Of a stretch of DNA of 64,000 bases, positions 6,326 to 63,480 are shown piece after piece. The first letter of the stretch is position 1. Every line of letters begins with the position of its first letter. The DNA is from Eledone cirrhosa (Eukaryota). The notes below the pieces were generated by a model. It had not been told where the DNA came from and ran no database searches. It saw only the letters and a program-made list of their open reading frames with translations. The DNA lies in NCBI GenBank assembly GCA_964016885.1, contig OZ024743.1, forward strand, positions 156,798,001 to 156,862,000, read 5' to 3'. The position numbers and the translations under genes are program-made.

Positions 6326-7081
6326 AGACGGAGAGAGAGAAAAACCGAGAGAGGGAAAAGTGGAGAAAGAAAGGGAGAGATAAAGAAAGGAAAAGAGAAA
6401 AAGAGAAAAAAAAAAGAAAAAAGAAAAAAAGAAAAAAGAAAAAAAAGAAAAAAGAGAAAAACGAGAGAGAGATATCAAAACACCAGACAGAGAGAAAAAA
6501 TCAAGAGAGAGAAATATAGAGATAGAGAGAGGGAGAGAGAACGAAAACCTTAAGTCATGTCATATTAAGTTAAGTTAACAATTGAGATGAAATGAATAAA
6601 TAAAATTAGAAATATTAATATTCACGAATGGAATATACATATATAATATGAGACATTAATCATTGTTTAACTATGATTATATATTTAGTTTAAAAATTGA
6701 GATCAATATATTAAAAATTGGAATTTAAACATTAAGAAATCTATATATTGCTAGAGAAAATTATCTATCATATAACACGTACACACAGGCAAAAATACAC
6801 ATAAATATATATATATACACACTCAGAAGATACAATTTATATCTACTCCCGTATATAATATATACATACAAAGCATAAATTATTTGTTTAATTAATGTAT
6901 ACATTCCTTGTGTTATTAAATAAAAATGTAAATCTATCCCTAAAAATATATCCATAAGGATCTCCCGGCTGTCGTCTAATTTGCAGACCTTCAACGTGCA
7001 TGCTGAGTATTATAATGACGCACTTAGAAAAATGGTTACTGCGAGAAAATAGAATATCTAGACGATAACCACATAAGTACT

Positions 7082-7918
7082 ATGAATAAAACACATCTAA
7101 GTCGAACTAGTATTGCACCACACACACACATCAATAGGCATACTAATAGGTGCAAACCAGCAAATAGAACCAGACGTAGAGAGTACATATGGTATAACCC
7201 CGTGTACAATATTTCTATTAGCACTAAGATTATCTCACAATTCTATACACTAATCAATAAACACTTTACAACTTCACATAAATACTATAAAATCTTTAAC
7301 TCGCGCACCATTAGACTCTCATACTCCCCTGCACCTAACATAGAACAACTAATTAAAAAACTCAACTCAGCAATACTAAATAAGTACATCCCTAATGACT
7401 CAGCGCACCGGCATAGCAACATACAACGCACTAACACGCAACTACAACCCCACCAAACTATCCAGGATTCTACTGCAAAACATAAAAATAATTGTAACTG
7501 CACCAAACCAGGTACGTGCCCACTGAGTAACCAGTGCCTAGCACGCAATATTGTCTACCGATGTACAATAAACTCCGGAACCAACAAATGGTATTACGTC
7601 GGATGTACCGCAACTTCTTTCAAAGCTCGCCTATACCAACATCGATCTTCGATCAGGCACGAAAAACTGCGCTCCGTAACAACCTTCGGCGATAAAGCCT
7701 GGCAGCTCCGGAGGAACAATCAAGCATTCTCCCTTGATTGGCAAATTATTGCTGCTGCGCCGGCATATAGGCAGAATCATCGATTCTGTAAAGTATGCAA
7801 TATGGAGATATACTGCATTTTAACGTCGGTAAACAAACTTTTGAACAGCAAAATTGAACGTTCACTGTACTGTAACCATCGTTTGAAAACGACTTTTTAT
7901 TTTATTAAATGCATGTAA
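7082..7918 (+). CDS. PLE linker + GIY-YIG endonuclease (C-terminal part of PLE ORF)
   Basis: YIWYNPVY, TIRLSYS, CNCTKPGTCPL (CxCx5C), IVYRC...YYVGCTATSFKARLYQH, CKVCNME, LLNSKIE, CNHR. Confidence 0.85.
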   Translation: MNKTHLSRTSIAPHTHINRHTNRCKPANRTRRREYIWYNPVYNISISTKIISQFYTLINKHFTTSHKYYKIFNSRTIRLSYSPAPNIEQLIKKLNSAILNKYIPNDSAHRHSNIQRTNTQLQPHQTIQDSTAKHKNNCNCTKPGTCPLSNQCLARNIVYRCTINSGTNKWYYVGCTATSFKARLYQHRSSIRHEKLRSVTTFGDKAWQLRRNNQAFSLDWQIIAAAPAYRQNHRFCKVCNMEIYCILTSVNKLLNSKIERSLYCNHRLKTTFYFIKCM

Positions 7919-8328
7919 TGTTACCTTTTTACACCACTGTTTGCAAATTTCTGTTTTATATGTTTATACACAGGATATGGCTTTCTATAATAATAGTACT
8001 AAACACTGTTTTCTGGACCCCTTTAGAAATAACCTGCTACTATAATAGCCCCAATAACTTGTCTGCAACTCTGTACCACTTTGACCCCTTTAACTAAATT
8101 TTGTCCAAACAACACCATTAGAAGAATTTACTTCCCCCGCAACCCTAACACGCCTCATTAAGCTAACTGCTGCCAAAACATTCTCTCCTTGCAATCTCTA
8201 CTAGTCTGACAGTCTTAAATCCTAGGACTCCCTCCCCCTTACTCACTTCCCTCTTCCCCTTCTCTTGCTACCTCCTTCTTTCTCTTTTATCTAGTGTATA
8301 AAATATTTTCATATCATTCCAATACAAA

Positions 8329-8445
8329 GGGTCTGACGACATGGTGTGTTTGCTTACAGTGTACCTTCGGTTTATGATAATATTTGTGTATTATTCAAAT
8401 AGCGAGGTATAGTTAACACATACACTATAGAAACAATTGTTACCT
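8329..8445 (+). ncRNA. Type I hammerhead ribozyme with ~90-nt extended stem II
   Basis: GGGT CTGACGA C-ATGGTGTGT...ATACACTAT-A GAAA CAATTG TT ACCT; palindromic stem III. Confidence 0.65.
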
Positions 8446-9429
8446 AATAAATTCTTTATACCCACATTTCCGTTTCATAAACGTCTTCTCCATATATACA
8501 AATATATAGGATTAGCTTTCATGCATTTATGGCTGTTAAATTATGCCTATCTGCAATAAAATTGTATGGGTACACATGTACATGTACACACACAATTCTT
8601 ACATATACATATATAAACATGTGTGTGCATCCTCACCCAATTGGTAGACACGTGTCACTCATGCATATATACAGACAGACATATATTCATAAAAATGCAT
8701 ATAACACATGTATATGTATGTTAATACACACATATACATACATACTCGTATAGAGATAAGTATACATCAATATATTACATAGTATAATTGAGTACATAAA
8801 ATACAAAAGGATTATATTTTGGAAATATAATTATATCAATATAACTTAAAAACAAAAGAATTCTAAAATATTAAAATATTAAAATATTAAAATATTTAAA
8901 AATATTATAGAATATTTTAAGTTAAAATAATATGTTTAATAGATTAAGTATAGAAATTTATCTTACGTATATCTTACTCAAGATATTGAAAGGATAAACT
9001 TTCGAAAATTATGAGAAGCTATCACAATAAAAAACAAACCAAATAAAAAATAAATAAAATATTTAAAAAAAATATATATATATAAAACATAAAAAATATG
9101 AAAAATATATAAAATATAAGAAATAGGAAATATGTTCTCCTTTCAAGAGCTCTCAATATATTTCTCAAGAATAGTTTATTATATTTATATTTATATTAAG
9201 GAAGAACATTTACTTATACTTGAGTACTTAACCAAAGAAAATTAAAAAGGTGAAGGGATCTAATGATTTATCGATAGGTTTCATATATTAACCAAATTAG
9301 TTAATTAATTACACTACATTTTAAATTTATATTTATATTTAAACGTTGAGTTCAATCTATGTCTGCAGCAACTGAATATTATTCCTTAAATTTAGGGAAG
9401 TTTTGGTCTTTAATATAAAGAATATCTTT

Positions 9430-12104: not shown

Positions 12105-14990
12105 AGTTAATCTGTAAACGCAGAAGTGGATATTTCAAAAAGCGTTGCAACCGGAGGAAGACAGGAAGACGATACTTTGGTTCGTGGAAACGTTCGCTGG
12201 CAAAGAACGGGAAAAAACGAAAATAATACGTCATTAATAGGAGCGGTGAAAAACAATTACGCGCAAAGACAGAACCACGTTTATGGTATAAAAGAGGTCG
12301 TAGACTAATGTTCTCTTAGTTGGTTAATAGAGAGGTTCTCTGGCGATGAACGAGAAAAACGAAGATAATACGTCATATGTGGAGCGTGGAGAACAATAGC
12401 ACGCAAAGACAGAACCACGTAAATGGTATAGCAGAAGTCGTAGACTAAAGTTCTAACTAGGAGACCGAATGAATCTCCGCTACAGAGTTAAGAACAAAGT
12501 AAATAAATACAATACAGAAGTCATAGAAATAAATAAATACATACACGCAAACAAATACGTACATACACAAGCATACGCAAAACACTTACCATCGGTATAC
12601 AAAACCACGCACATATAAATATGTGTGTGTGTATGCGTTTATACAAATAAGTAAATAATTATATAAACGTATATAAATAAATAAATACGCATATAACAAG
12701 CGCACACACATACCTACATGTAAATACACGAATCTTCGTAGACGTAAGTCAACCAAAACATGAAGTACACATATACGCACACCCTACATACGTACGAACC
12801 TGCATACTCACACAGACGCAAAACACCCGTATACACATAGCCAAACCATATGTACCAGAATATATAAAATTATACGCCATAACATAAACAATCAAGTATA
12901 CGTACGAGAAGGTATACGTACCTTCACAAAACCTACGGGTAAATTATACTTACCTATGCAAATAAGTAATGGTATAAACAAAACATACTTAGCTCCCACA
13001 TCAAGACGTAAAATATCCATGTATAAATCGTACTATCCGTTAGGGTATAACGTGGGGCTGTAATACAGGAAAGTTTTGTGCAATGTATGTTTACAAGGCG
13101 AAATTGCCTCAGATTTTTTGTTTAAGATGTGGTCTGTGGCGTAGAGTATTTCCAGGGGCTCAGCGGCGCAGAGGTCAAATGGTCTTTTATTTCCATTATA
13201 CGATCTAGGCCTAGCTAGGATCTCCCAGTGTAAATTATATTGGGTGTGGCTGTCTTTTAGACTCCAGATATAAGCTGAAAGTGACGTCATATTCCTTCTT
13301 AGAGGGTAACGAAAAGAATGGTTATGCATGTAAAGACGCTGCTTGAATCTATTGGCGGTTAAGCCTATGTAGGCCCTACGGGTGTTCCAACCTTACATTT
13401 GTAGACAATGTTACTAGAGAGGCATTTCCCGGATAGAAGTCAATCAACTCGATTCTTACAATTACAGTTAGTACTAACTACAGGGTTGCACGTGTTCCTA
13501 TGGCCAGGTAGTTTAGCTAAATTTGAAGCTGTGATGTTATGTGCAAGGTTAGGAGTCGTAGAGTAAGAAATTTGAATAGTATTTCTATTAAAAATTCTAC
13601 TATACTTATGTGTAGGAGGAAAATGCTTCGTAATAAGGGAAAGAAAGATCTTAGCTAATGGTGTGGCCACCTCCATATTATATGGGGTGTTATACCAACA
13701 AATGCGACGGGATCTATTTCTTCTAGGTCTATTTTCGTACTCTGTATATGCTACCTTATCGACAAATCCACGTCGAGCAAGAGCTTCATTGTAATAAGTG
13801 GTATGGTCGTTGAAAATACGCTCGTTGGTGGAAAGACGGGAAGGCCTCGACGAAACGTTTCTTACCAGGTTCTTGGTTATGCTGGTTCTTGGTTATGCTG
13901 GTTGGAATGCTTACCTATGTAATTAAGCGTATCATTCGGCTTTCTATACGGGTAATACAACCCATTCAATAAATTGAGGGTAACGTGGATGTAATTAACG
14001 ACCGAGAGATTGGCCTCAACCTGTATAGAGAGTTTGGAGCCTTTAAAGAAGGCTGTGAGTTCTTTTCTGAACCTGTCGCAAGCACTAGGTCCGCACTTAG
14101 TCGTGGTCAAAAGACCATCGTCACGGTACAAACCACCGCCCGCGTTGGGGAATTCATCCTTGATAGAGAAAAGAAGGAAAAGGCCAATAAGATCAGTAAC
14201 CTCCGCAGAATCACTGGCGCCCATACTCACTTCGAATGGGGGTACTATTGGATTTTTGAATCCAAATAGAGTCGTCGAAATTAATCATCGACTTTCGGGC
14301 ATTGAGGATGACATCAACTTCGAAATCCTTAACCCACTGTTAGTGTTTTAGTGAAATTGATAGCTCTAAGGAGAAGTGGTAAAGTGATGGAGGAGTAGTA
14401 ATTGTTGATGTCGAATTGGATAAAACGGCAATGTTCCTTGTTACATATGCCGTTGAACCAATCAATAACGCGAAAGAATTGTTCCACAGTGCAAGAGGGG
14501 CCAAACTTCTAATTTCTGGTATAATTCTATCAAGAATCGTTTTACTAACTTTACCTAAATCGGACTTCGTAGGCTTAATAAGCCGAATAGAGGGGTTGTT
14601 CAGAAAATTGGATTTGTGATACTTCAGGGTAAAGTGGGGAGAAATAGGGTCCAGACCTTCGGTCCGGTCCAGGATGTTGAGGTCAGATGTGATTTTAAAC
14701 CCAGCATCGTTCCAAAACATCATTTTCGAAGGGTAGCAATGCTGGGTTACACGGGGGGTTATTATAGGTTTTAAATCCAAATTTATCCTGTTTGTTGTCT
14801 GATTTTCGCGGATTATCGAAATAAAAGGCACGCCAACGCAACCTTTTAATGAACGCGTCTGTTTTCTGTATCAGGAGTTTTAGATACGTTTTCCTGCTTG
14901 GTACGGGTATGTTCTTTGTAGAAATATTAAGATGTTGTTTCTGCATGATGAATATAAGTCAGTAGAGTGCTCAACCGAGGGAGCCAAATA
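12105..14990 (-). mobile_element. Hydra-type PLE, left arm of a head-to-head inverted pair (RT + GIY-YIG pseudogene)
   Basis: ORF pieces MQKQHLNISTKNIP..KRLRWRAFYF, SIRLIKPTKSDLGKVSK, MGASDSAEVTDLIG..LYRDDGL, CNCKNRVD, LNKKSE. Confidence 0.92.
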
Positions 14991-15329
14991 TTACTATTTG
15001 ACTCCCTCGATTGAGCACTCTACTGACTTATATTCATCATGCAGAAACAACATCTTAATATTTCTACAAAGAACATACCCGTACCAAGCAGGAAAACGTA
15101 TCTAAAACTCCTGATACAGAAAACAGACGCGTTCATTTAAAGGTTGCGTTGGCGTGCATTTTATTTCGATAATCCGCGAAAATCAGACAACAAACAGGAT
15201 AAATTTGGATTTAAAACCTATAATAAGCCCCCATGTAACCCAGCATTGCTAACCTTCGGATATGATGTTTTGTAACTCATTCGGAGTATCAAATTTCGGA
15301 ATAGGAGCAATTCCTTCCATCAAGACCTG

Positions 15330-16644
15330 ATGAATAAAATTCGTTCTATTAAGGATTCTAATGCCGTGCACGTCCATTCCGACAAAACTGGCAACCTATA
15401 TCAAGTGGAGCGCAGTACTTACCATCAACTACTACATAATGCTGTAACTAAGGATTACCGTAAAACTAATCGGTGCGTCATCAATGAAATCAACGATGCT
15501 AGGGTTAAAATCACATCTGATCTCAACATCCTGGACCTGACCGAACGTCTGGACCCTATTTCTCCCCATTTTACCCTGAAGGATCACGAATCCAATTCTC
15601 CGAACAACCCCTCTATTCGGCTTATTAACCCTACGAAGTCCGATTTAGGTAGACTTAGTAAAACGATTCTTGATATAATTATACCAGAAATTAGAAGTTT
15701 GACCCCTCTTGCACTGTGGAACAATTCTTTCGCGGTGATTGATTGGTTCAACGGCATATGTAACAAGGAACATTGCCGTTTTATCCAATTCGACATCAAC
15801 AATTACTACTCCTCCATCACTTTACCACTTCTCCTTAGAGCTATCAATTTCGCTAAAACACTAACAGTGGTTAAGGATTTCGAAGTTGATGTCATCCTCA
15901 ATGCCCGAAAGTCGGTGATTAATTTCGACGACTCTATTTGGATTAAAAAATCAAATAGTACCCCGTTCGACGTGAGTATGGGCGCCAGTGATTCTGCGGA
16001 GGTTACTGATCTTATCATTAGCTAAGATCTTTCTTTCCCTTATTACGAAGCATTTTCCCCCTACACATAAGTATAGTAAAATTGTTAATAGAAATACTAT
16101 TAAAATTTCTTACTCTACGACTCCTAACCTTGCACATAACATCACAGCTTCAAATTTAGCTAAACTACCTGGCCGTAAGAACACGTGCAACCCTGTAGTT
16201 AGTACTAACTGTAATTGTAGGAATCGGGCTGATTGCCCCCTATCCGGGAAATGCCTCTCTAGTAACATTGTCTACAAATGTAAGGTTGTAACACCCACGT
16301 CCCGTAGGGCCTACATAGGCTTAACCGCCAATAGATTCAAGCAGAGTTTTTACATGCATACCCATTCTTTTCTTTACCATCTAAGAAGGAATATGACGTC
16401 TCTTTCAGCTTATATCTGGAGTCTAAAAGACAACCAATATAAGTTACACTTGGAGATCATAGCTAGGGCTAGATCGTATAACGGAAATAAAAGACCATGT
16501 GACCTCTGCGCCGCTGAGGCCCTGGAAATACTCTACGCCACAGACCACATCTTAAACAAAAAATCTGAGGCAATTTCGGCTTGTAAACATAAATTGCACA
16601 AAACTTTCCTGTATTACAGCCCCACGTTATACCCTAACGGATAG
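15330..16644 (+). pseudogene. PLE reverse transcriptase-GIY-YIG ORF with internal deletion of the YRDD/thumb segment
   Basis: Jumps from SAEVTDLI directly to LAKIFLSLITKHF; the missing segment is present in the left arm (about 13660-14190). Confidence 0.85.
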
Positions 16645-18454: not shown

Positions 18455-19499
18455 AGTTAACGGGACTATCATAAGGTTTCCCAGCTAGTACCGGTTGTGT
18501 GTCAGCTTACTGAATGTAAGGCAATTTGACAGTGAGATAGAATTAGTGCACTGCTTAGAAATTGAATTCCGGATGTTTCGACCAACCATGTCTGTAAGAT
18601 TGATCAACTTCACAACTTATACGAGTCAATAGATGAGTGAGAGAGAAAGATGGAACAGGTATTAGAGCAAATATTAAACAAAACACAATACAAATTATAG
18701 AAAAGTGTTCAAATTACTCTCATTGTGAATCTGCTATTTTGGAGATAATAATAAGTTGACGGGACTAGCATCTCCGTGTACCCACTATTTACGTTTATGT
18801 TAAAATTACAGTGTAGCCACAAAGTTAATTGCCTCAATAAAACACATATAAATGGGTACCATATAATTACCCGTACTCGAATTTCGCCCACACGTAATGC
18901 AGCAAGAGAGCCTACAACATCTACTGTCTGTATTATTATGCAACATTGTATAATCATAGCATGTGGCTTCATCAGCGGGTTTCGCCTAATCAATAAGAAA
19001 TCGATCGACAGAATTCGATTCCAGTCCGTGCGGCCTATGGCAGTAAAAGAGACAGGTGATACTGTAGTACATTAGTATCTGAAATCCCTACGACTCATCA
19101 AAATAACATCAACCGATTGGTCACTGTTTCAGGAATGTACGTGATATACTCTTTTACTCTTTTACATGTTCCAGCCTCACATGTGTGTGTGTATTCATGA
19201 GTAAAAAAGCAATAATTTTATATTAACATCATAAATTAAAGCACAACTCCAAAAAACACTCTGAAACAATTGACGATTCCTTTCCTACAGCTACTGCTGC
19301 GACAAATGAATGACGTTAGTCATCTAACATGTGGTGTTCCGTATCTAATACTGGTTGTCTATTATTAGCGTGTTTGGAAAGGTAGTCAACAGTTAGAGTT
19401 ATACTCTGGTGTATGGAGTTAGCTATCTGCTGGATGCACTCCATTGTGCTATTTTCTAAATCATGTTTATTAGTACTCTTATGTGGAACTCTGGATTAA

Positions 19500-21849: not shown

Positions 21850-23620
21850 ATACACAAATTTACGTTAATATTTCCATCACGAATTTCAATCATTTTCGAA
21901 TATTCTTTGCGAAATCATGGTTATTTTCTTAAATTTATTTAAACAAGCATTGACTTAAAAGCTACGGGGGTTAGTTCAACTGAAACCGACAGCTAAGCAC
22001 TTATCTAAGCACTTATTTTTTAAAGGACAGTTTGATTTAATTCTACAATTACATTTAGCAGAGTTGATGTTATTGGGAACGGTATTATTGCTATTTTGGT
22101 TATGATTTAAATTTCTATTATTGATTCTATTTATATTTTGTGCTATGTCATAGTAGTAGAGTAGGATAGTTTTATTGTATGTCTGTTAAAGATTGAGTGG
22201 TATCTATGGGTTTTAGGGAAACATTTATCTAGAGCTTTAATGAATAGTTTAGCTAAAGGTGTTTTAACGCTTAATGAGAAAGGAGGTGAAAACCAAATTA
22301 TATTTCTAGTTCTATTTCTCCTGTTAGTTTTAGAGTTTAAGTAAGGTTTTCTATTGTAATGATAATTAATAATAGGGTTATTTGGCTTATCACTGTTGTC
22401 GATGTATTTAATCTTATTTATATAGCCTGCTCTGTTTAAAGCTTCATTATAATATTCTGCCTTAACGTCAACGATGTTTTTGTTAGCAGAGATTCGAGGA
22501 ATACGTTGCTGTATAGAATTTACAATAGTGTTCTTAATATATCTAGAATGACTGGAGTTGAAGCTTAAATAGTTTAAATTCTCATTAGTTTTATGGAATG
22601 GATAGTAGAGCCCTGTGTTAAGGTTTAATGTTACGCCTAAAAAGTTAACAATTTTGTAGTTATTCTTCATTTCTAACTTAAGATTGTAGCTATTGAAAAA
22701 TTGTATTATTGATTTTCTTTTTCTATTAATTTCAGAATTACTATGATTTTAATTAAGAGCAGCATATCATCACAATATAAAACACCGGTCATCTCTGGTA
22801 TTTTTCTCTGTAGTGTATTATTAATAAATATCCCCACAATGTCCGTTAATTCCGCCGAGTGCGATGACCCCACGGTGAAATCAAAATTATTTTTTCTATC
22901 AGCTCTAGTCCATAGATGGGTGTTGAATTCAATTAAAGTTTTCGTGGGGTTAAAATGATATGCATTTCTTCACTAGATAAATCTGTATGTTTAGATGCAT
23001 AGACAAAGGCTTTATTAAGTAGATTAGGAGTGATAGAGGAGTAGTAATTTGCAATATCCAATAGAATGTATTTTATGTTATTGAACCAATTTGTAACTTG
23101 GTTAGTACCGTTCCATAGTTTTAGGTAAGATATTTCTTTAAGTTGCGGTATGATTCTATCTAATATATGTTTACTAACTATGCCTAAGTCTGATTGAGAT
23201 GGTGCTATAAGTCTAACTGGTAGTTCTATTTCAAAGTTTCTTATGTGGACTTTCAAATTAATTTTTGGTTTTCTAGGTAGAAAGGGTTCGGTCCTATTTT
23301 CGATGCCTAATTTATGAATTATTTCAGAATCTTCTCTATTTAGCATTTCCGGTCTTCTTTGGAAGTTATTTTGTAGTTATTCCGTAGTTCTTTCAATATA
23401 AGGTTATTGTATTCGTCCTTTTTTCATTCCGTATAAATTGTTGGTTTTGTCAGATTTTACGAGGATTTTCTCAATTTTTTCAAGATTTTCTATATTATTC
23501 TTAAGGTCTTTAAGGTATTCCTGGCTTGCAAATTATTTTTTCTTGAATTAGATGTTTTGTATAATTGATATTATTTTATTTTCAAATTCCATTAATAGCT
23601 TGTTGTTAGGTGGATTTTAC
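21850..23620 (-). mobile_element. Decayed Hydra-type PLE (RT + linker)
   Basis: PVRLIAPSQSDLGIVSKHILDRI, LDIANYYSSI, VNFLGVTLNLNTG..PFHK, NIIWFSPPFS, KCNCRIKSNCPLKNKCL. Confidence 0.9.
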
Positions 23621-27601: not shown

Positions 27602-27660
<59 letters not shown>

Positions 27661-27840
27661 TCAATACATTAACAGAGAGAGCCTTAAGCTATACTCTGAC
27701 TGGCTTCCATCTCACTCAACAAACATTAGGATATACATTAGTATAATCCCAATTTTACGTTTGGGGTGCTAAGTATATGTATTTTGCGGAAGGCCAGTAG
27801 TATTATTTTATATGAGACATAATTAAAATATATCTCCTTT

Positions 27841-27962
27841 TCCAAACAATTGTTTCATTATAAGTTTTCTACAAGTTGGGAGAATGTGTACGGGTTATGT
27901 AGAAGCCTTCACAACATTCCGTAGGAATATATGCAGGTGGGCACTTATAAATCATCAGTGGA
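27841..27962 (-). ncRNA. Type I HHR with long branched stem II
   Basis: TCCA CTGATGA T TTATAAGT...ACTTATAA T GAAA CAATTG TT TGGA. Confidence 0.75.
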
Positions 27963-28573
27963 TGCCCGTCAAACATCGATATAAAAAAAATTCTCTTACC
28001 GATGTTTTAATCCCATGTCAGCGATTGTCTCTCTCCGTATCAGAATGACCGCCAAATTTGAAATTCCAGCAGTCTCAGAATGAGGAGTCTCACACTGTCT
28101 TCAAGCGGAAAGGGGAGGTAATCGCGAAACACAAGGATTTAAAATAATATACACGTGGGTCAATTAATTTTTTCAACAATTTTAATCTCGCGTGTGAAGA
28201 ACACAATTAGATTTTAAAAAAATAAATATAAGCATGTATTATTTATACACGCATACTGGTATTTTCTTAGTCTAAAAACAGAGATATGATACCAGAATAA
28301 CAATCAATATTACATAGTAATAATAACTACGGAAAGTTACGCTTAAAAGGTATCTGGAAGTATTCATCTCAGGCCAAATCAAGAGTATAATATTCAATAC
28401 ATTAACAGAGAAAGCCTTAAGCTATACTCAGACTGGCTTCCATCTCGCTCAACAAACATTAGGATATACATTAGTATAATCCCAATTATACGTTTGGGGT
28501 GCTAAGTATATGTATTTCGAGGAAGGCCAGTAGTATTATTTTATATGAGACATAATTAAAATATATCTCCTTT

Positions 28574-28695
28574 TCCAAACAATTGTTTCATTATAAGTTT
28601 TCTACAAGTTGGGAGAATGTGTCCGGGTTATGTAGAAGCCTTCACAATATTCCGTAGGAATATATGCAGGTGGACACTTATAAATCATCAGTGGA
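28574..28695 (-). ncRNA. Type I HHR with long branched stem II (second copy)
   Basis: Same core and helices as 27841-27962. Confidence 0.75.
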
Positions 28696-28863
28696 TGTCC
28701 GTCAGAAATCGATATAAAAAAAATTCTCTTACCGATGTTTTAATGCCATGTGAGCAATTGCCTCTCTCCGTATCAGAATGACCGCCAAATTTGAAATTCC
28801 AGCAGTCCCAGAATAAGGAGTACGGAGGATGTTATAGTTCACTTGAAGCATTGTGTAATGAGG

Positions 28864-29163
28864 TATAAACGTTTGTATATGTATAATAAAGCCAAAACAA
28901 TGCAGGTATGGACATAGAATCAAAATTGCAAATACAAAAGATATTGTTGACAATTAGTCTTTTACCTTAGATTTATTCAAATGTCCTTAATTTTCGAGAT
29001 AATATCTCTTCTTCGGAGGGAAGAAGAGATATTATCTCGAAAATTAAGGACATTTAAATAAATCTAAGGTAAAAGGCTAACTGTCAACAATATCTTTTGC
29101 ATTTGCATTCTTTATTATAAGTGAATACCTGCATTGTTTTGGCTTTATTATACATATACAAAC

Positions 29164-29170
<7 letters not shown>
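28864..29170. repeat. Fold-back of a PLE pLTR end (~150-bp arms); U4C HHR at 28984-29020 on minus
   Basis: CCCT CCGAAGA A GAGATA T TATCTC GAAA AT TA AGG; same family as 47787-47945. Confidence 0.85.
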
Positions 29171-29324: not shown

Positions 29325-30167
29325 AACAAAGTCAATCTGTAAACGCAGAACTGGATATTTCAAAAAACGTTGCAGCCGGAGGAAGACAGGAAGACGATAC
29401 TTTGGTTCGTGGTAACGTTCGCTGGCAAAGAACGGGAAAAAACGAATAATACGTCATTAATAGGAGCGGTGAAAAACAATTACGCGCAAAGACAAAACCA
29501 CGTTTATGGTATAAAAGAGGTCGTAGACTAATGTTCTCTTAGGTGGTGCATATAGACGTTCTCTGGCAATGAACGAAAAAACGAAGATAATAAGTCATAT
29601 GTGGAGCGTGGAGAACAAAAGCACGCAAAGACAAAACCACGTAAATGGTATAGCAAAAGTCGTAGACTAAAATTCTAACTAGGAGACCATATGAATCTCC
29701 GCTACAGAGTTAAGAACAAAGTAAATAAATACGATACAGAAGTAATAGAAACAAATAAATACATACACCCAAACAGATACGTACATACACAAGCATACGC
29801 AAAACCTTACCATAGGTATACAAAACCACGCACATATAAATATGTGTGTGTGTGTATGCTGGTGTACAAATAAATAAATAATTATATAAACGTATATAAG
29901 TAAATAAATACGTATATAACAAGCGCACACACATACCTACATATAAATACACGAATGTTCGGAGACGTAAGTCAACTAAAACAAGAAGTACACATATACA
30001 CACACCCACTATACGTACGAACCTGCATACTCACTCGGACGCAAAACTCCCGTATACACAGAGCCAAACCCTAAATACCAGAATATGTAAAAATGATACG
30101 CCATAACAGTCAAATATACGTACGAGAAGGTATACATACCTTCACAAAACATATGGGTAATATATGC

Positions 30168-30902
30168 TTACCTATGCAAATAAGTAAAGGAATAAACAAA
30201 ACATATACTTAGCTCCCACATCAAGACGTAAAATATCCACGTATAGATCGTGCTATCCGTTAGGGTATAACGTGGGGCTGTAATACAGGAAAGTTTTGTG
30301 CAATTTATGTTTACAAGCCGAAATTGCCTCAGATTTTTGTTTAAGATGTGGTCTGTGGCGTAGAGTATTTCCAGGGCCTCAGCGGCGCAGACGTCATATG
30401 GTCTTTTATTTCCGTTATACGATCTAGCCCTAGCTAGGATCTCCCAGTGTAACTTATATTGGGTGTGGTTGTCTTTTAGACTCCAGATATAAGCTGAAAG
30501 TGACGTCATATTCCTTCTTAGAGGGTAACGAACAGAATGGGTATGCATGTAAAGACGCTGCTTGAAACTATTGGCGGTTAACCCTATGTAGGCCCTGCGG
30601 GACGTGGGTGTTACAACCTTACATTTGTAGACAATGTTACTAGAGAGGCATTTCCCGGATAGGGGGCAATCAGCCCGATTCCTACAATTACAGTTAGTAC
30701 TAACTACAGGGTTGCACGTGTTCCTACGGCTAGGTAGTTTAGCTAAATTTGAAGCTGTGATGTTATGTGCAAGGTTAGGAGTCGTAGAGTAAGAAATTTT
30801 AATAGTATTACTATTAACAATTTTACTATATTTATGTGTAGGGGGAAAATGCTTCGTAATAAGGGAAAGAAAGATCTTAGCTAATGGTGTGGCCACCTCC
30901 AT
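30168..30902 (-). pseudogene. PLE linker + GIY-YIG endonuclease (frameshift near C-terminus)
   Basis: CNCRNRADCPLSGKCLSSNIVYKCKV..AYIGLTANSFKQRLYMH. Confidence 0.85.
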
Positions 30903-31726
30903 ATTATATGGTGGGTTATACCTTCTCGTACGTATATTTAACTGTTATGGCGTATCATTTTTACATATTCTGGTATTTAGGGTTTGGCTATGTGTATACG
31001 GGTGTTTTGCGTCCGAGTGAGTATGCAGGTTCGTACGTATGGTGGGTGTGTGTATATGTGTACTTCTTGTTTTAGTTGACTTACGTCTCCGAACATTCGT
31101 GTATTTATATGTAGGTATGTGTGTGCGCTTGTTATATACGTATTTGTTTACTTATATACGTTTATATAATTATTTATTTATTTGTACACAAGCATACACA
31201 CACACACATATTTATATGTGCGTGGTTTTGTATACCTATGGTAAGGATTTGCGTATGCTTGTGTATGTACGTATCTGTTTGCGTGTAAGTATTTATTTGT
31301 TTCTATTACTTCTGTATCGTATTTATTTACTTTGTTCTTAACTCTGTAGCGGAGATTCATTTGGTCTCCTAGTTAGAATTTTAATCTACGACTTTTGCTA
31401 TACCATTTACGTGGTTTTGTCTTTGCGTGCTTTTGTTCTCCACGCTCCACATATGACTTATTATCTTCGTTTTTTCGTTCATTGCCAGAGAACGTCTATA
31501 TGCACCACCTAAGAGAACATTAGTCTACGACCTCTTTTATACCATAAACGTGGTTTTGTCTTTGCGCGTAATTGTTTTTCACCGCTCCTATTAATGACGT
31601 ATTATTCGTATTTTCCCGTTCTTTGCCAGCGAACGTTACCACGAACCAAAGTATCGTCTTCCTGTCTTCCTCCGGCTGCAACGTTTTTTGAAATATCCAG
31701 TTCTGCGTTTACGGATTGACTTTGTT

Positions 31727-36699: not shown

Positions 36700-38950
36700 A
36701 GAAGTGTTTAGACGGGGTCCGTATTTGTTAATAAAGTGAGATTCCTTGCTGATGCGCTGGATGTGGGTGGCATTATTTTTAAATTTGTAGAGAGGAAAGA
36801 TTCTGAAGTTGGGATGATTTGGGGCTCAACAGGTATCAATGTGTTCACTCAGTGGTATTTTCCTGTATTCCCGTATTTTAATTTGGGATCTATGGACAGT
36901 CATGCGTTGGCGAGGCTGTTTTTGGTCTGGCCTATGTATTGTTCTCGACAACCTGAGCAAGTTAATACATATATTAGATTTTCTGATGCGCATGTGAAAT
37001 TGTGTTTTAATATAAAACGTTTTCCTTCTTTGAAATACAATTCCGAACCATCTATTAGGTTGATGCATATGCCACAGTTGGGTCTATCACATTTTTTTAC
37101 TGTGGGTTTCGTTGTTGTGGTTGGCAGTACTTTGGCATGGGTTAGGATGTTTTTCATTGACTTACATTGTCTTTTGCTCTTTATGATATCGTGTGTTCGT
37201 AGGATTTGGTTCATTCTATGGTCCCTTTTTAACACAGGGATGTTCTGGAGGATGGTTTCAAAGGCCTCATTGTTGAGGGGGTTGAGTGTGGAGGTGTATG
37301 GAAGAGATTTTAGTTGCGGTTGATTTACTTTAGGGTGTCTAAGTTCCTGGGTACTGAGTTTTAGGGCACGTTGGATTCCATTGTCAATTAGTGATGCAGG
37401 GTAGTACCTGCCTATGTGTGTGTCCTTTAGTTCTTGTAGCCGTAAGTAACAGGTGTTTTTATTGGAGACTATAGTACAGATTCTCTTGGCTAAGATGTAG
37501 GGAATATTAATTTTAACGTGTCTAAGGTGCCAAGAGTTGAAAGGAAGATATTGCTTGGAGTATGTGGGCTTGTAGTATATGCCTGTTTCTATTTTTTTTT
37601 TTGTTATGAATCTTAATGAGGATGTCGAGGAAGGGGAGTTGTTGATGGCTGTATTCCATCGTAAAGTTAATATTCGTATTGAGCCCATTTATAAGGGTGT
37701 GAAATTCTTTAAGTTTCTCGATGTTTTCGTGCCAAAGGGTGAAGTCATCTAGATATCGCTTCCAGTTCCTTTCTATGTGTAAGTGGAAAGTGTTTCCAAA
37801 TGTGTTTAGTACTTTAGTGTAGATGGTGATTTCCATGTATCCCATGACTAGGTTGGCATAAGTGGGGGCTGTTTTCGTTCCCATAGCGGTCCCAGATTTC
37901 TGCCTGTAGGATTTGTTATTGAAAACGAAGTAATATTTCTCCAAGATAAATTTGAGTCCCTCTATCACGAATTCTTGTTTGATGCGTTGTAGGAGTTCAT
38001 TGTGGTAATTATCCAGCCAGAATTGGATGGCTTCTATTCCTAGGTTGTGGGGGATGTTGGAGTATAGGTTGACTACATCGAACGTCACTAGTAGGGTTTG
38101 TTCAGACAGGGGCATATTAGGGAGGTGATTGAGCATATATAGGTCGTCCCTTATATAGCTTTTGATGTGTTTTAGAAAAGGCTTGAGAAGGTTATCAATG
38201 AAGTTGCTAAGGCGGTGGGTTTCGCAAGCGGGCCTGCTATTATAGGTCTTAATTTGAGATCATTGGGTGAGGGGACATTGATGACTATGTCTGTGGCTTC
38301 CTAGCATGCCTTACTTATTAATTCGCTTTTATGTACTTTAGGGATACCGTAGAAAAGGCTGGATTTACTTGTGAAATCTGTGATGAAGCTGGATTCCTTG
38401 TTAGTGAGTCCTTCTTTGTATTGGTTGATCAGAGTTTTTAGGTTTCTCATAATTTTCTGTTGATTGTAGTGTTCAGCCTTTTCGTAGTATGTTTCGTTTT
38501 CCAAAGTGGAGAGCGCTAAGTTGATATATAATTTTGTCTCCATTAGGACAACTGTACTCCCTTTATCAGCCTCTTTAATTGTAATGGTTCTGTCGGTTTT
38601 TAATCTACTTAATTCTTCCCATTCTTTCTTGTTGAGGTTTGGCTTGTGTTTTTGTCTGTGCAAGTGTTGGTAAGGGAAGTCTGTGATGTGTTCACAGAAT
38701 TCGTCCAGGATTTTATTTCTACCTTTTGATGGGGTGTATTTACTTCTATTTCTGGCTAATGATTCATCCTCATTGTACTGGTCGAATAGTTCTTCACTGA
38801 GTCGTAACTTTCTACAGAACCCTGTGATGTCTTCCTTCATTTCATAGTAGTTAGGACGTAGTGGGGTCGGTGTGAATTTAAGACCTTTGGAGAGTAAGTT
38901 CATAAGGTTGGGTGTTGGTTCTGCACTAGTTAGATTGATAATTGTTATTA
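36700..38950 (-). pseudogene. Neptune-type RT + Zn-linker + GIY-YIG ORF (frameshifted)
   Basis: LLSKGLKFTPTP, IKEADKGSTVV, FYGIPKVHK, RPII, TFDVVNLYSNIPH, GTAMGTKTAPTYANL, WKRYLDD, LPFLDI, YYKPT, CDRPNCGIC, NLIYVLTCSGCREQYIGQT. Confidence 0.93.
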
Positions 38951-38977
38951 CTCTCGGTTTCTGCTCCCTGTGTTGTG

Positions 38978-40208
38978 TTATTTTGTTTGCCTGTATCTGT
39001 GTGCTGTGTCTAAAAAATGGTTGTGGTAGAGGGGTTGTCTGGTGATGTTAAGTGGTCTCCTGTGTTTGTTATATTCCTTGTTGTTGTAAAATGTGGTTCG
39101 GGTTCGTGGTTGTAGATTGAATGGGGTGTTCCTGTATTGCGAGTATGGATGTGTGTTTCTATGTGCCATGTTGGATTGTGGTGGTGTAGGTGACCTACGT
39201 TGTTGGTTGTATCGTGTGTTGTGGGTTTGTTGTGTATTGTGGAAGCGAGAGTTGAGAAAATGGAAATTACCTTGCTGTCCCCTTGAAGCGGGGAGTTGTT
39301 ACATCTATATGTTTGACGATGAGGCATCCGCGTAGTAGTTGAGTGATTTTGTATGGTGTCTCCTTGAAGGGGGAAAGTTGTAAATGTCATTCTGGGGTGA
39401 TGATTTCTAGAGTTTATGTTCCTTCTTATCGTAGCGAAGTTGGGAAGTGCATCTTCCGTGTGGTGCTTCCTTCTTCTTTTGTTAGTGGCGGGGGGGGGGG
39501 GGGGCGAAGTTGTTGTGCGGTTCGGTTATGGGTTTTCCAATTTTTATGAACGGGTTATTGGAGGTGTAATCCGTTTAAAAAGTCGATTCATAGTTTAGGA
39601 ACCAAGCGGCACTTTTTTCCCAGCGTTGACGGGATTTCAGTTCTTCTCTGTTGCAGTCCCCTTTCCATAATTTAGAGATCTTCTCTGCCTTGGGGCCTTC
39701 AGTCTTATTGTTGATTTCCAGGAGGATCTCTTCATCGATGGTTTTGATTTTTTCCTCATTTGTCTGGGCCCTCAATTTAAGAAGTTCAATTTCTGTCTTC
39801 ATTTTTTACAATGCCATTCTTTCCCTAAGGTGTCTTTGAGGTTCGGGTCCATTTTTCATATAACTCCGCTTTGTTGTGATTTTATATCATCTTCCAGAAT
39901 GAGAACTTTCTGTTTCTGAGGGATGTGTTCCATTTTGGAATTGTTCGAATTTTCATTTTGTATAAATATATCTCACATTGTTCTTCGTTGGGTTTTCCTG
40001 GGTTGGTAGTAGTGAACATAGTTTGGATAGTATCGCAAAGGTTTTGAAGTTTATCGCCGATTTCGGAGGGTTTGTATCCGATGACGGTTTCCTCATTTGT
40101 GGAGTCAAGTTTGTCGACCAGCACAGATAGGTAGGTGTTAATTTTCTTGAGCTCCTGTAGAATCTCTTCATTTGTGTTGATAAGTGTTGTATCTGTTTTT
40201 GTTGGCAT
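38978..40208 (-). pseudogene. Upstream ORF1/N-terminal extension of the Neptune-like element (helical, then low complexity), frameshifted
   Basis: ATG 48 bp after the 5' pLTR; consecutive same-strand ORF pieces 39882-40208, 39575-39802, 39010-39390, 38978-39169. Confidence 0.6.
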
Positions 40209-47149: not shown

Positions 47150-47945
47150 AAGACTGGGTGATATATTTTAATAGGAGACTCCAATGCTTATGTTGTACCT
47201 GATTACCTGAAGTGATTGGAACGAGCGGTGACACAGATCTAAATGCGAATTGAGTGGCCTTAATAGATATACGTTCTAGTAATGCGCTCTTTGTTAAGGT
47301 TTTGTCATTGTTTTTGCATTTCAAAAACACCGACAAAAACATAACAGTTAGGATAGAAACTAAGGAAAGAAACCTCGGCAATCTTAGAATTAAGGAAGCA
47401 CTAATTAGAGACAAAACGCCACCACCAATCAATAATAGACTAGAACTCAACACCGAATTTATAACTTGATAGAGCATCTAGCCCCATGCTTAAACCCCCC
47501 CCACACACACACGCAGACACACACACATACACACACACAAAGACTAGTTCTAACACGAGAGAACATCTATCCCTCACATTTACGTATAGACATATTTTCT
47601 CACACTCACACACACACACACACACATACTTACACATTCACGCATTCTCCCACAAACTTAAACAGACATGTAAAAAAAAACCTTTTAAAGGAAGACTACT
47701 CTTTATCCACCTAACATTAACTCTATACCATTCCCTGTCAGCACGACTTGGCAAGCTGACAGGAACACTGGTTTAACCGCTTTACTTCCATCCGAAGAAG
47801 AGATAGTATCTCGAAAATTAAGGACATTTAAATAAAGCTAAGTTAAAAGACTAATTGTCAACAATATCTTTTGCATTTGCATTTTTCTTTTTAATTCTAT
47901 TTCCATACCTGCATTGTTTGGCTTTACAAATTCAAACGTTTATCT
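47150..47945 (+). mobile_element. PLE 3' end (GIY-YIG C-terminus, CA tract, pLTR with U4C HHR at 47787-47824)
   Basis: LHFK..RIETKERNLGNLRIKEALIRDKTPPPINNRLE; CCGAAGA AGAGATAGTATCTC GAAA ATTA AGGA. Confidence 0.75.
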
Positions 47946-48077
47946 ATATATATATATATATATGTATGTATATATATATATATATATATATGTAAGTATG
48001 TATGTATACGTACATACATATATGTATACAGACGTACAGTAGCATGCATATATATATATATATATATACATACAGGT

Positions 48078-49701: not shown

Positions 49702-50545
49702 AAAGAATAGAGGTGTAACACACAAGTTATTATATATTGGTAAACGGAATAGAAACTGCTGACAAATTGTTCACAGTTGAAAAATGGTTTAATTAGGAAT
49801 AAAAGAGTATTAGTGATTGTATGGGTTAGTATTCAGTTGTGGTTTTAAGTTTTTAAGTTTTTACCGGTTGCGCATTTCTAAATGCTTTTCAAAAATAATT
49901 TTGAGATAGAGTGTCCGAGCTGACCCATTCACACAAGTCACCCACCTTTTTAAAAAATGTTCTGGTGGGGCAACAATTCTCATTCCACCCTTATCTTTCT
50001 TTCCTAGTGGAACTTGTAAAAGTTGACGAGGGGTTGACTGAAGAGGAAAGTGTCTGTCTTCAGACCTTTCAGTCACGTTCACCACACAACCTCTTTCGCT
50101 ACAAGTATCAGACAGGAAAACTGTTATAAAAACAAATAAACAAACTAATATTGGTAAACGGAATAGAAAATGCTGACAAATTGTTCACAGTTGAAAAATG
50201 GTTTAATTAGGAATAAAAGAGTATTAGTGATTGTATGGGTTAGTATTCAGTTGTAGTTTTAAGTTTTTAAGTTTTTACCGGTTGCGCATTTCTAAATGCT
50301 TTTCAAAAATAATTTTGAGATAGAGTGTCCGTGCTGTTTGCTCTGATCTGAGCAAACAGCACGGACACTCTATCTCAAAATTATTTTTGAAAAGCATTTA
50401 GAAATGCGCAACCGGTAAAAATTTAAAAACTTAAAACCACAACTGAATACTAACCCATACAATCACTAATACTCTTTTATTCCTAATTAAACCATTTTGC
50501 AACTGTGAACAATTTGTCAGCATTTTCTATTCCGTTTACCAATAT
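49695..50545. mobile_element. Neptune-pLTR-derived element: one direct arm (49735-49918) plus a ~395-bp palindrome (50149-50545)
   Basis: Arms are homologous to pLTR ends at 35474 and 40256; centre gtttgctctgatctgagcaaac. Confidence 0.88.
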
Positions 50546-50707
50546 ATATATATATAATAAATACAATATAGGAGAAAGCTTTTTAGCGATACTCCGGACA
50601 AATTCCAACTCACTCAACAGACATTAGGAAATAAGTGATTATATTCCCAATTATGTGTTCGCGGTGCTAACTAAAAGTATTGCGTGGAAAATTGGCTGTA
50701 TTATTTC

Positions 50708-50898
50708 AAAGGCGGTGGATTGGCCGTATCGGTAGAGGGTCGGACGCCATGCTTTCCAGCATAGTTACGTCCCTTTACCATCTGAGTTCAAATCCCGCCG
50801 AGGTTGACTTTGCCTTTCATCCTTACGGGGTCGATAAAATAAAGTACCAGTAATGCACTGGTAATTGCTGGCCTTGTGCCTAAAGTAGAAACAATTAT
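50708..50898 (+). mobile_element. tRNA/Nin-domain SINE
   Basis: aaggcggtggattggccg..gagttcaaatcccgccgaggttgactttgcctttcatccttacggggtcgataaaat. Confidence 0.85.
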
Positions 50899-50928
50899 TT
50901 CAAATGACATATATCTAATATATCTCTT

Positions 50929-51055
50929 CCCAGACAGACGTCTCGTTTCATTATAGGATTCCTACAATTTGGGTGAAATTATACCAATTTATGTAGGAGC
51001 TTGTATACCATCAATAGATATATATTCAAGTGGGCTCCTATAAATCATCAGTTGG
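50929..51055 (-). ncRNA. Type I HHR with branched stem II, diverged relative of 27841/28574
   Basis: CTGATGA T TTATAGG...CCTATAA T GAAA CGAGACG TC; helix I imperfect. Confidence 0.62.
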
Positions 51056-51438
51056 TGCCCCAATACTACTAATATTGATAATCTAACCAACATCAGCATT
51101 TAGCGATAATCACTTTCTGTGCCTGAGGTATCTGTCAGGTTGCCAGTCCAGCAGTTCTGAATGAAGTGCTCGAACTGATTCAAAAAATGAGGAAGTGAAT
51201 TACCGCAAAAAAAAACAATACATGCGCGTGACAATGAACTCTGAAAGGAATTCAGGCCACGTGCTAAGAACTCAATTGGAAATTGAAAAAATATCTATGT
51301 GTGTACAACATTTGATGACACACAGACATTCTCTCGGGCAAAGTAACAGAATGAGATATAAGGAACAATCAATATTCATATATAAAAAATAAACAAAGAA
51401 ATGCTAACCTTATACCGGGAATTTTTTTCATATCAGCC

Positions 51439-51478
<40 letters not shown>

Positions 51479-55539: not shown

Positions 55540-55912
55540 CCACAGGGCTCAAGTTAGACCTATCCGGGATTTCCAATGCAGAGAATGTGCATTTTTGTTG
55601 ATGTCTGCATGATGACCTCGGATTTCAGGTTGGCTGCGTCACCCTTTAATCTCACTATTTCTATGGCTTCGGTCACGCACAGCCTGTATCGCCCCTCGCC
55701 AGCTGAGTCTCCATTTGCACGTTGAATGATACTCCAGTTGAGATCGTACGCAATGCCACTATCTTTCAAGTCCCAGATCAAGTCTACCAGCCTTCTGAAC
55801 TGCCCCTTACTCCAGTCCTTAAAAGAATTCATGTGATTTGACATCCTCGACTTAAAAGTCGTGTGTGTTGCACCGATGTAGGTGAGCTTAGCTTTTTGCG
55901 TGTCAAACACAT
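55540..55912 (-). mobile_element. PLE GIY-YIG fragment
   Basis: [54 protein letters not shown]. Confidence 0.85.
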
Positions 55913-55952
55913 TTATATATAAATAAATAAATAAATAAATAAATATATATAT

Positions 55953-56068
<116 letters not shown>

Positions 56069-56073
56069 GTATA

Positions 56074-56132
<59 letters not shown>

Positions 56133-56624
56133 ATATATATATATATATTTATTTATTTATTTATTTATTTATTTACTAGATCCTAATTAGTTCTTTTCCT
56201 GTGGCATTTGGAATTTTTACACCTCATAGATTCAGTAATATTCAAAACGATCCCATTTTCTTAATTCCTTTCTTCGTTTCCCACTCAAGCCTACTTCTAA
56301 TCTCAGCCCTATCTTTCTCTTTATACCTTCTCTATCATCATATATGGTAAACTTCAAAACCTTCACCTATACAAATGATTAAAGAATAATTGTTCCACAT
56401 CACAGCACACAGATCTATGTTTATTTATGTGTTTATTTACTTGTTCTATCTGAAAACATGAGTGGAATAGCAATATGACAATATATTTTAAGGACAAAAT
56501 GAAAACATACAGACTCACACAGATAGAACGAGTAAATAAACCCATATATAAATAAATAAATAAGGACACACACACACACACCCGAATGTGACGCATGCGC
56601 AAACTAAGCTCACGCACACACACG

Positions 56625-59449: not shown

Positions 59450-59880
59450 TAAACGGAATAGAAAATGCTGACAAATTGTTCACAGTTGAAAAATGGTTTA
59501 ATTAGGAATAAAAGAGTATTAGTGATTGTATGGGTTAGTATTCAGTTGTGGTTTTAAGTTTTTAAGTTTTTACCGGTTGCGCATTTCTAAATGCTTTTCA
59601 AAAATAATTTTGAGATAGAGTGTCCGTGCTGTTTGCTCTGATCTGAGCAAACAGCACGGACACTCTATCTCAAAATTATTTTTGAAAAGCATTTAGAAAT
59701 GCGCAACCGGTAAAAACTTAAAAACTTAAAACCACAACTGAATACTAACCCATACAATCACTAATACTCTTTTATTCCTAATTAAACCATTTTTCAACTG
59801 TGAACAATTTGTCAGCATTTTCTATTCCGTTTACCAATATATAATAACTTGTGTGTTACACCTCTCTATTCTTTTAACTA
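59445..59880. mobile_element. Second copy of the ~395-bp Neptune-pLTR palindrome, in (TA)n
   Basis: Same arms and same centre as 50149-50545; tail 59840-59880 is the reverse complement of 49696-49735 apart from a 2-nt indel. Confidence 0.9.
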
Positions 59881-62720: not shown

Positions 62721-63069
62721 TTGCGACAATGAAGAGAATATACAGGCATGAAAAGATTATACAAGCTACTATGTGTAGTAGTAATGGCATTCAGTTAGAA
62801 CAATAACAACAATATCAACAATGCTAGCAATAAATTATTTGAAATAATCACAACATCAATCTAGGTGGGAAGTATAGTATATCTATGATTTTAGCGTGTA
62901 AAACTAGCTGACATGAGGCAGATGTATAAAATTGACATGTAAAGACTGTCGTATATCAAGTGTAAAGAAAGGCTGGTGTTTTTAAACAATGTAGGTCAGG
63001 TGGCCGTAATAGTCGGTTTTTATCTGACCGATGAAGTATTTATCACTGTAGTAGAATTTGTGTGGTCTA

Positions 63070-63480
63070 CCGGATAGGTGCCCATTGGCGAATAGATGTC
63101 TCGATTCGTGCCCAGTGTACATGTGTACGGTCAACTCAGACAACTCCACCTGGCATTACATTGGATCTACCGCGGGTTCTTTTAAAAAAAGATGGTATGT
63201 ACACAGGCACTCGATGAAAAATCTTGCACTTATGGGTTCTACAACCCTCGCCAAAAAATTATGGGAACTGAAGGACAACAACACTAGCTACAGTATCAAC
63301 TGGTCGATGTTGTCGGCTGCTAAAACCTACAGTACAGGTATGTTCCACTGTGGGCTATGTGATCTAGAACTACTGTATATCCTTAAAAATGTAAAATGGC
63401 TATTTAACAACAAGTTAGAAAGATCTATATTCTGCAGACACAAAATTGCCACTAAATTCATAAGATTTAAACCTCCATGA
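63070..63480 (+). mobile_element. Hydra-type PLE GIY-YIG fragment
   Basis: CPLANRCL..VYMC..HYIGSTAGSFKKRWYVH..TTLAKKLWELK..CGLCDLE..NNKLERSIFCRH. Confidence 0.88.

Follow-up and report, generated by a model that had tools for sequence, protein, structure and literature searches.

What is the branched structure inserted into stem II of a hammerhead-like motif near 50.9 kb of a 64,000-nucleotide stretch of Eledone cirrhosa DNA (hereafter the window), and has it been kept by selection? A first-pass annotation, made from the letters of the window, had compared three copies of the motif and argued for selection on the inserted structure from two compensatory double changes. Our preferred reading, to which we give a probability of roughly two in three, is that the locus is a damaged copy of a likely non-autonomous Penelope-type repeat, whose minus-strand RNA is predicted to form a dimer-cleaving type I hammerhead in which stem II leads into a junction bearing two hairpins.

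The sequences that the first-pass annotation quoted for stem II and the sub-hairpin are present where it placed them, and the ribozyme lies on the minus strand. Along this strand it begins with GGGC (51057-51060), the 5' strand of a candidate pseudoknot, which is near-invariant in families A-H and reads GGCG in group I. There follow the 5' strand of stem I (51052-51055, with one mismatch private to this copy), the catalytic core CUGAUGA (51051-51045), position 10.1 with the 8-nt 5' strand of stem II (51036-51044), and the junction strand GCCC (51032-51035), the candidate 3' strand of the pseudoknot. Hairpins IIa (51000-51030) and IIb (50960-50998, the sub-hairpin noticed earlier) come next, and then the 3' strand of stem II with position 11.1 (50950-50958). 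The segment 50933-50949 holds GAAA (50949-50946), a near-palindromic stem III and a GUC triplet, with the predicted cut at 50933/50932, and the 3' strand of stem I closes the motif (50929-50932). Stems I and II flank the core and the open end is in stem I. The earlier assignment of stem III and the triplet has to be replaced. With the distal GUC (50935-50933) as the triplet all four stem I pairs form in 29 of 33 family-B copies, whereas the proximal GUC gives this result in only one of the 33 and leaves stem I pairing as 'x|xx' in most. Stem III is then a near-palindrome of 3 bp with a 7-nt loop. Three changes are private to the 50.9-kb copy: C>A at position 2 of stem I, A>U at 10.1 and C>U in stem III. 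Their combination is found in one of 33 family-B copies, where 31 carry the family alleles. The 50.9-kb copy also has a single ribozyme only. Together with a SINE in its tail, these features make it look damaged and probably impaired.

The motif is part of an abundant repeat. The sequence of 50894-51430 was retrieved at 30 genomic places with 96-100% identity and a common 3' end near 50542. The family-B unit spans 50542-51437 on the minus strand, measures about 707 bp when the SINE is discounted and lacks about 17 nt at its 5' end; it is flanked by (TA)n and has a tandem period of about 705-707. Its upstream part (51066-51370, minus strand) is non-coding, without an ORF and with several conserved predicted hairpins. 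The SINE (50712-50893, plus strand, antisense in the unit tail) lies between copies of an 11-bp target duplication (50701-50711 and 50894-50904) and reads as tRNA-like from its A/B-box-like motifs. It also occurs in loci L252, L254, L255 and L269, where it breaks up B and E copies at 12-29 nt beyond the predicted cut, a position that partly reflects query choice and possibly a target preference. The window also holds a full family-A unit (27655-28385, minus strand, core at 27958, predicted cut between 27845 and 27844) preceded by a 5'-truncated tandem partner (28386-28821, minus strand, core at 28691). Beside this tandem, a 307-bp inverted repeat (28864-29170), related to 47785-47974, belongs to another element.

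Genome searches with two families returned at least 1970 and at least 2567 first-look candidates, counts that overlap, and the 40 candidates scored per family were 96-98% and 90-97% identical. In 1 Mb of sequence taken without selection, of which 100 kb flanks the window, a covariance model detected four complete members, and a type-I scanner made 53 matches in 1 Mb of unselected genome against 1 in the reversed control. Units of about 705-800 bp sit in (TA)n, share their 3' end and are variably truncated at the 5' end. They are often preceded head-to-tail by a partial copy, and at one locus several full units occur. These partial tandems, 5' truncations and (TA)n targets match Penelope-like elements as described in the available text of PMC8557442. 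[quoted passage not shown]

The unit could also be the pseudo-LTR or the 3' UTR end of a longer, unsampled autonomous Penelope-like element. A Hydra-type fragment (7028-7918) followed 418 nt downstream by a hammerhead with a 90-nt insert, an arrangement present in two copies, fits such an element, and the loci examined reach only about 3.5 kb each; no autonomous element sharing the repeat ends was found among them. This reading is nevertheless at odds with the full-length A, B, C and D units, which are preceded by another unit's tail or by (TA)n, and with the content of the four units checked, in which the longest stop-free frame is at most 73 aa, blastx gave nothing below E 0.99 and comparison with the eight Penelope-type protein fragments of the window gave no match. 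We consider it very unlikely. The host repeat is a high-copy, non-coding one that resembles a non-autonomous Penelope-type element or a retrozyme.

The initial case for selection on the inserted structure was thin. The copies at 27841 and 28574 are 95.7% identical over 437 nt and are halves of one tandem insertion, so that two lineages had been compared and not three, with two single events between them. Both reported double changes (A-U to G-C in stem II and U-A to C-G in IIb) are real, and a third, U-A to A-U in distal stem II, had been missed. For these two lineages alone, the chance that four substitutions over 28 paired sites fall as two full pairs is 0.004, a figure in which the post-hoc choice of structure is unaccounted for.

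Iterative searches extended the comparison to 219 distinct complete ribozymes in 12 subfamilies. One of these, F3 (one copy), was excluded from the consensus counts, and the B3 consensus leaves out further located B3 copies. The 11 multi-copy subfamily consensuses are 44-90% identical pairwise and stand for about 11 related lineages, few of them independent. The core, A15.1-U16.1 and the NUH triplet are exact in 11 of 11, the triplet of G (7 decayed copies) reading AUC. Thirty real copies, 27 of them distinct, were aligned by sequence only. Pairing held in 84.9% of cells, against 35-43% with partners slid, and double-change cells numbered 130 against 52 when shuffled; 'further pair types' were no higher than in the shuffles (48 vs 52). 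Double changes affected 3 of 4 pairs in stem I, 6 of 9 in stem II, 9 of 13 in IIa and 1 of 7 in IIb.

The consensuses gave a similar distribution. Stem II was paired in 85 of 88 cells and IIa in 98 of 108, and double changes affected 6 of 8 pairs in the former and 7 of 10 in the latter. For IIb the figures were 66 of 77 cells and 1 of 7 pairs, an under-count because G and H lie one column off in the consensus alignment; subfamily B2 has a G·U intermediate of the IIb change. The three unpaired stem II cells are one alignment slip and two ascertainment-biased cells. The search patterns for B3 and E2 imposed unusual bases at position 2 or 3 of stem II, which makes the cells concerned unreliable. 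Among the consensuses, 7 of the 15 model pairs that vary were fully paired and doubly changed against 75 of 5221 background pairs, with the caveat that the structure was taken from the same sequences and relatedness was ignored, which makes the slid, shuffled and background controls optimistic. One stem II column also 'covaries' with an unrelated IIb column because both changed in family B only.

A sceptic could hold that the paired changes are a coincidence of few events on a common tree, the repeat having spread by DNA-level amplification without selection on RNA structure. The relatedness of the roughly 11 lineages, the choice of the structure after the sequences were seen and the 75 background pairs that look compensatory all lend this some force. 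Yet the 85 of 88 paired stem II cells hold at 44-65% identity, in 7 of 7 families the upstream region folds more strongly when read on the ribozyme strand, and 5' truncation suggests RNA-based copying, so we regard coincidence as highly improbable. Selection on the branched stem II, as judged from these comparisons of sequence, holds once the further subfamilies are added.

Folding agrees with this structure. Nine inserts folded separately gave an identical three-way junction of II, IIa and IIb, with a mean stem II pair probability of 0.87-0.97. The GCCC junction strand was unpaired in the insert MFE fold of 8 of 9 consensuses, its last C being paired in F. The sub-hairpin of the first-pass annotation, IIb, forms in all nine folds but is the least supported helix, and is weak in family F. 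That annotation had missed IIa, the best-supported branch, along with the stem III palindrome, the candidate pseudoknot and the host-repeat nature of the locus. RNAalifold returned stem I and IIa only from the copy alignment, and II, IIa and IIb from seven consensuses.

Structure extends well beyond the ribozyme. In seven families the z scores are -2.9 to -6.2 for the stem II inserts, folded in the sense direction, and -3.1 to -8.1 for the upstream 300 nt of the unit (in family B, -8.1 sense and -3.9 antisense), and most unit tails are structured too. The region 51130-51380, which had been set aside as 'non-HHR', is structured as well, so that selection is not confined to the ribozyme insert. 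Its proposed homology to 28040-28320 stands on colinear conserved blocks in multi-family alignments, but not on pairwise comparison, which yields no BLAST HSP. This broader structure raises the possibility that the hairpins are kept because the element RNA is structured, for stability or RT recognition, and give no catalytic help. The stem II inserts of other hammerheads of the genome, which run from 13 to more than 90 nt and suggest that size is flexible, point the same way. Such an explanation has more difficulty with an intact core and with stem III palindromy that covaries in all families. It would also leave the ribozyme active and demote only the branch. The 5' ends discussed below bear on it too.

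The palindrome of stem III is perfect in 7 of 11 families and nearly perfect in the other 4, and its central letters vary. Stem III folds as a monomer only in family H among the 11. A palindromic stem III of changing sequence fits dimer cleavage as described in the available text of PMC4209133.

The second feature is a plausible pseudoknot, proposed from sequence, that would link the flank of stem I to the stem II junction. The GGGC that immediately precedes stem I and the GCCC that directly follows the first stem II strand are kept in families A-H, where their pairing shows conservation without covariation. Group I, a set of 8 matches of which 7 are full-length, has the same layout, and its majority carries GGCG/CGCC in place of GGGC/GCCC. 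Its member in the window (18851-18991, minus strand) is a CpG-decayed distant relative with the same branched arrangement, which a covariance model scan of the window with default filters did not report; 4 of 6 group I loci tested against the model matched at E 4e-6 to 4e-3, partly from the core. In a group of hammerheads with 48-51-nt inserts, 12 of 12 distinct matches have 5-7 bp of complementarity at the pseudoknot place, against about 3.1 in controls. In the consensus MFE folds of A, D, E2, B3 and G the pseudoknot segments pair in a nested helix, in competition with stem II, so that GGGC and GCCC might also act as a switch.

Several other hammerheads were encountered in the genome. Loci L008, L048, L081, L131, L143, L158, L196, L252, L277 and L307 carry hammerheads with 48-51-nt stem II inserts forming one hairpin; hammerheads of this kind have 5-7 bp of complementarity between 5' flank and junction, with a double change in L143. 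Hammerhead-like motifs with 53-92-nt stem II inserts occur in L165, L173, L255, L125, L141, L208, L213, L217 and L256. Mismatches at 10.1-11.1 are common among hammerheads of the genome.

If RNA of these repeats is cleaved in vivo, the 5' ends of truncated copies may record it. Among 268 copies, 89 had 5' ends free of query effect, and 77 of those were truncated; copies found with tail queries, which also end near the cut, were left out because the flank in the queries biased their 5' ends. Fifty ends fell within -100 to +120 of the predicted cut, 13 of them at -1 to +11 where 2.3 were expected (scan-corrected p 4e-4). About five of the background ends are SINE interruptions. The predicted cut site is passed by 26 of the 77 truncated copies. 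An ATATAT run in families A, B and D coincides with +9 to +11, where 6 of the 13 clustered ends lie, and may contribute to the cluster. Four sequencing runs from one study, made up of contigs, yielded neither informative joints nor informative ends.

These ends are where the explanation by structured RNA without catalytic help can be weighed further, since it takes the cluster for an RT stall at the folded domain or for microhomology to the (TA)n target. The pile-up is indeed mostly 5-11 nt past the predicted cut, just 3' of stem I. However, an excess survives exclusion of the ATATAT positions (7 ends at -1 to +7 against 1.8 expected, p 0.004), and at most one end falls in each of the six-nt AT runs at -93, -88, -89 and -73. 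We judge this explanation unlikely overall. The cluster itself hints at in vivo cleavage or RT stalling at stem I.

The reading that we prefer, a dimer-cleaving hammerhead in a non-autonomous Penelope-type repeat, suggests the following cycle. A tandem locus would be transcribed, and two hammerheads in the RNA would pair through the palindromic stem III, as a dimer because most monomers are unable to close it. The GGGC upstream of stem I would pair with the junction GCCC and dock stems I and II; this docking would replace the loop-loop contact, while IIa and IIb would keep the GCCC strand exposed. Cleavage after GUC would create a new 5' end. The RT and endonuclease of an autonomous Penelope-like element would then use (TA)n for priming, and copying would begin at the fixed 3' end. 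It would stop near the cut if the RNA had been cleaved; on uncut or circular templates it would continue beyond the cut and so produce partial tandems. Hydra-clade-like Penelope elements, fragments of which are present in the window, are candidates for the enzyme source.

Broken Penelope-like ORF fragments are found at 7028-7918, 13440-16644, 22143-23376, 30168-30944, 36900-39047, 55560-56156 and 63055-63480 of the window. Several carry DKT and CxCX5C, the motifs by which the (TA)n-targeting Hydra clade is described in the available text of PMC8557442, and are labelled Hydra-clade on that basis. The 36.9-39.0 kb fragment, with an RVT_1 match, looks like another clade; a Pfam search of five window ORFs returned RVT_1 only, in one of the five. 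A Penelope-like match upstream of the ribozyme at L107 (one of 133 complete ribozymes) was considered as an autonomous partner and proved to be a neighbouring insertion across (TA)n. No coding remnant was found in the four units checked.

How does this ribozyme compare with known systems? As far as the available text of PMC4209133 describes them, the minimal hammerheads of Penelope elements share a type I core, a stem I of 4-5 bp, a stem II of 7-8 bp, a palindromic stem III that is unstable in the monomer and implies dimer cleavage, and, within one genome, numerous consensus families related by compensatory changes. They differ in that a small loop closes their stem II, whereas an ~80-nt three-way junction does so here, and the candidate pseudoknot is a further difference. 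G10.1-C11.1 and the extra nucleotide after 9, both part of the described consensus, are also mostly missing here. The former is present only in E and E2 and absent in 9 of 11 families, the other families having U·U, A-U, C·A, A·A or G·U, and the extra nucleotide between 9 and 10.1 occurs in family E only. A stem II starting with U10.1-U11.1 is a tolerated natural variant according to the available text of PMC3088659.

Non-LTR retrozymes, proposed to be non-autonomous Penelope-like derivatives (PMC7229834; 10.64898/2026.07.22.740005, both as available in part), are likewise non-coding head-to-tail repeats with one type I hammerhead per unit. The retrozymes described in that portion of PMC7229834 mostly have canonical loop-loop hammerheads and units of about 220-350 bp, in contrast to the 705-800 bp units, mostly one or two at a locus, found here. 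Pseudoknotted hammerheads, in which a helix of 4 or more bp joins stems I and II, make up about 40% of representatives and include all three types in the portion of PMC3088659 available; here, unlike there, the partner strand lies in the multibranch junction of a repetitive animal type I motif, and highly repetitive type I motifs were left out of two pseudoknot panels of that study. The 'HHR_half_core' of Naiad elements (available text of PMC8557442) resembles our motif in having core halves set apart, by 35-50 nt, also in Octopus Naiad; its structure was unassigned there, whereas here the spacer is 93-97 nt and has a covarying fold. As modelled here, the motif would work in the manner of the dimeric hammerheads of Penelope elements and sits in a repeat that resembles a retrozyme; it departs from the described consensus at the junction and at 10.1-11.1.

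Such motifs are missed by Rfam and by searches with short spacers (7-17 nt in the available text of PMC8557442). Rfam covariance models gave no hammerhead match at E<=10 in 50850-51440, and no hammerhead among the 150 of 162 whole-window matches listed, where microsatellite-driven miRNA matches dominate. In the literature, as represented by partly available sources, we found no natural hammerhead with a two-hairpin stem II junction; Lünse 2017, Arkhipova 2017 and File S2 of Craig 2021 were outside this scope and could show long stem II variants. The main text of a 2026 Octopus repeat annotation contains neither 'hammerhead' nor 'ribozyme'.

In-vivo cutting by Penelope-like hammerheads and its purpose are called unclear in the available portions of PMC8557442 and PMC11167929. 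In a lizard element the ribozyme depended on protein, its cleavage could be dispensed with in vitro, and the site was free of read ends (PMC11167929, same portion). Thousands of insertions with 5' ends that can be mapped against the cut site bear on this question, and the natural variants provide material for examining a pseudoknot within a branched stem II. We advance only tentatively, as a doubtful possibility, that these ribozymes form a large pseudoknot-docked branched hammerhead class in thousands of non-autonomous Penelope-type repeats, with genomic 5' ends that record germ-line cleavage and cleaved RNA as the transposition template. If so, some Penelope-like clades scored as hammerhead-less may bear expanded forms.

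The window and other loci contain further repeats. The hammerhead that follows the Hydra-type endonuclease fragment 7028-7918 after 418 nt lies at 8319-8446 on the plus strand; its 90-nt stem II insert is mostly unbranched, its stem III palindrome is identical to that of family A, and a second copy is found in L009. Two 100-bp perfect palindromes (50297-50396, identical to 59592-59691) are probably inverted repeat junctions, with Rfam miRNA matches below threshold. Tandem repeats of 139-140 bp occupy 12192-12454 and 29415-29670, in 3' regions of Hydra-type elements. Finally, L184:8630-9700 has the look of a classical retrozyme, with a short hammerhead repeated at a 311-bp period in at least four tandem units and one inverted unit.
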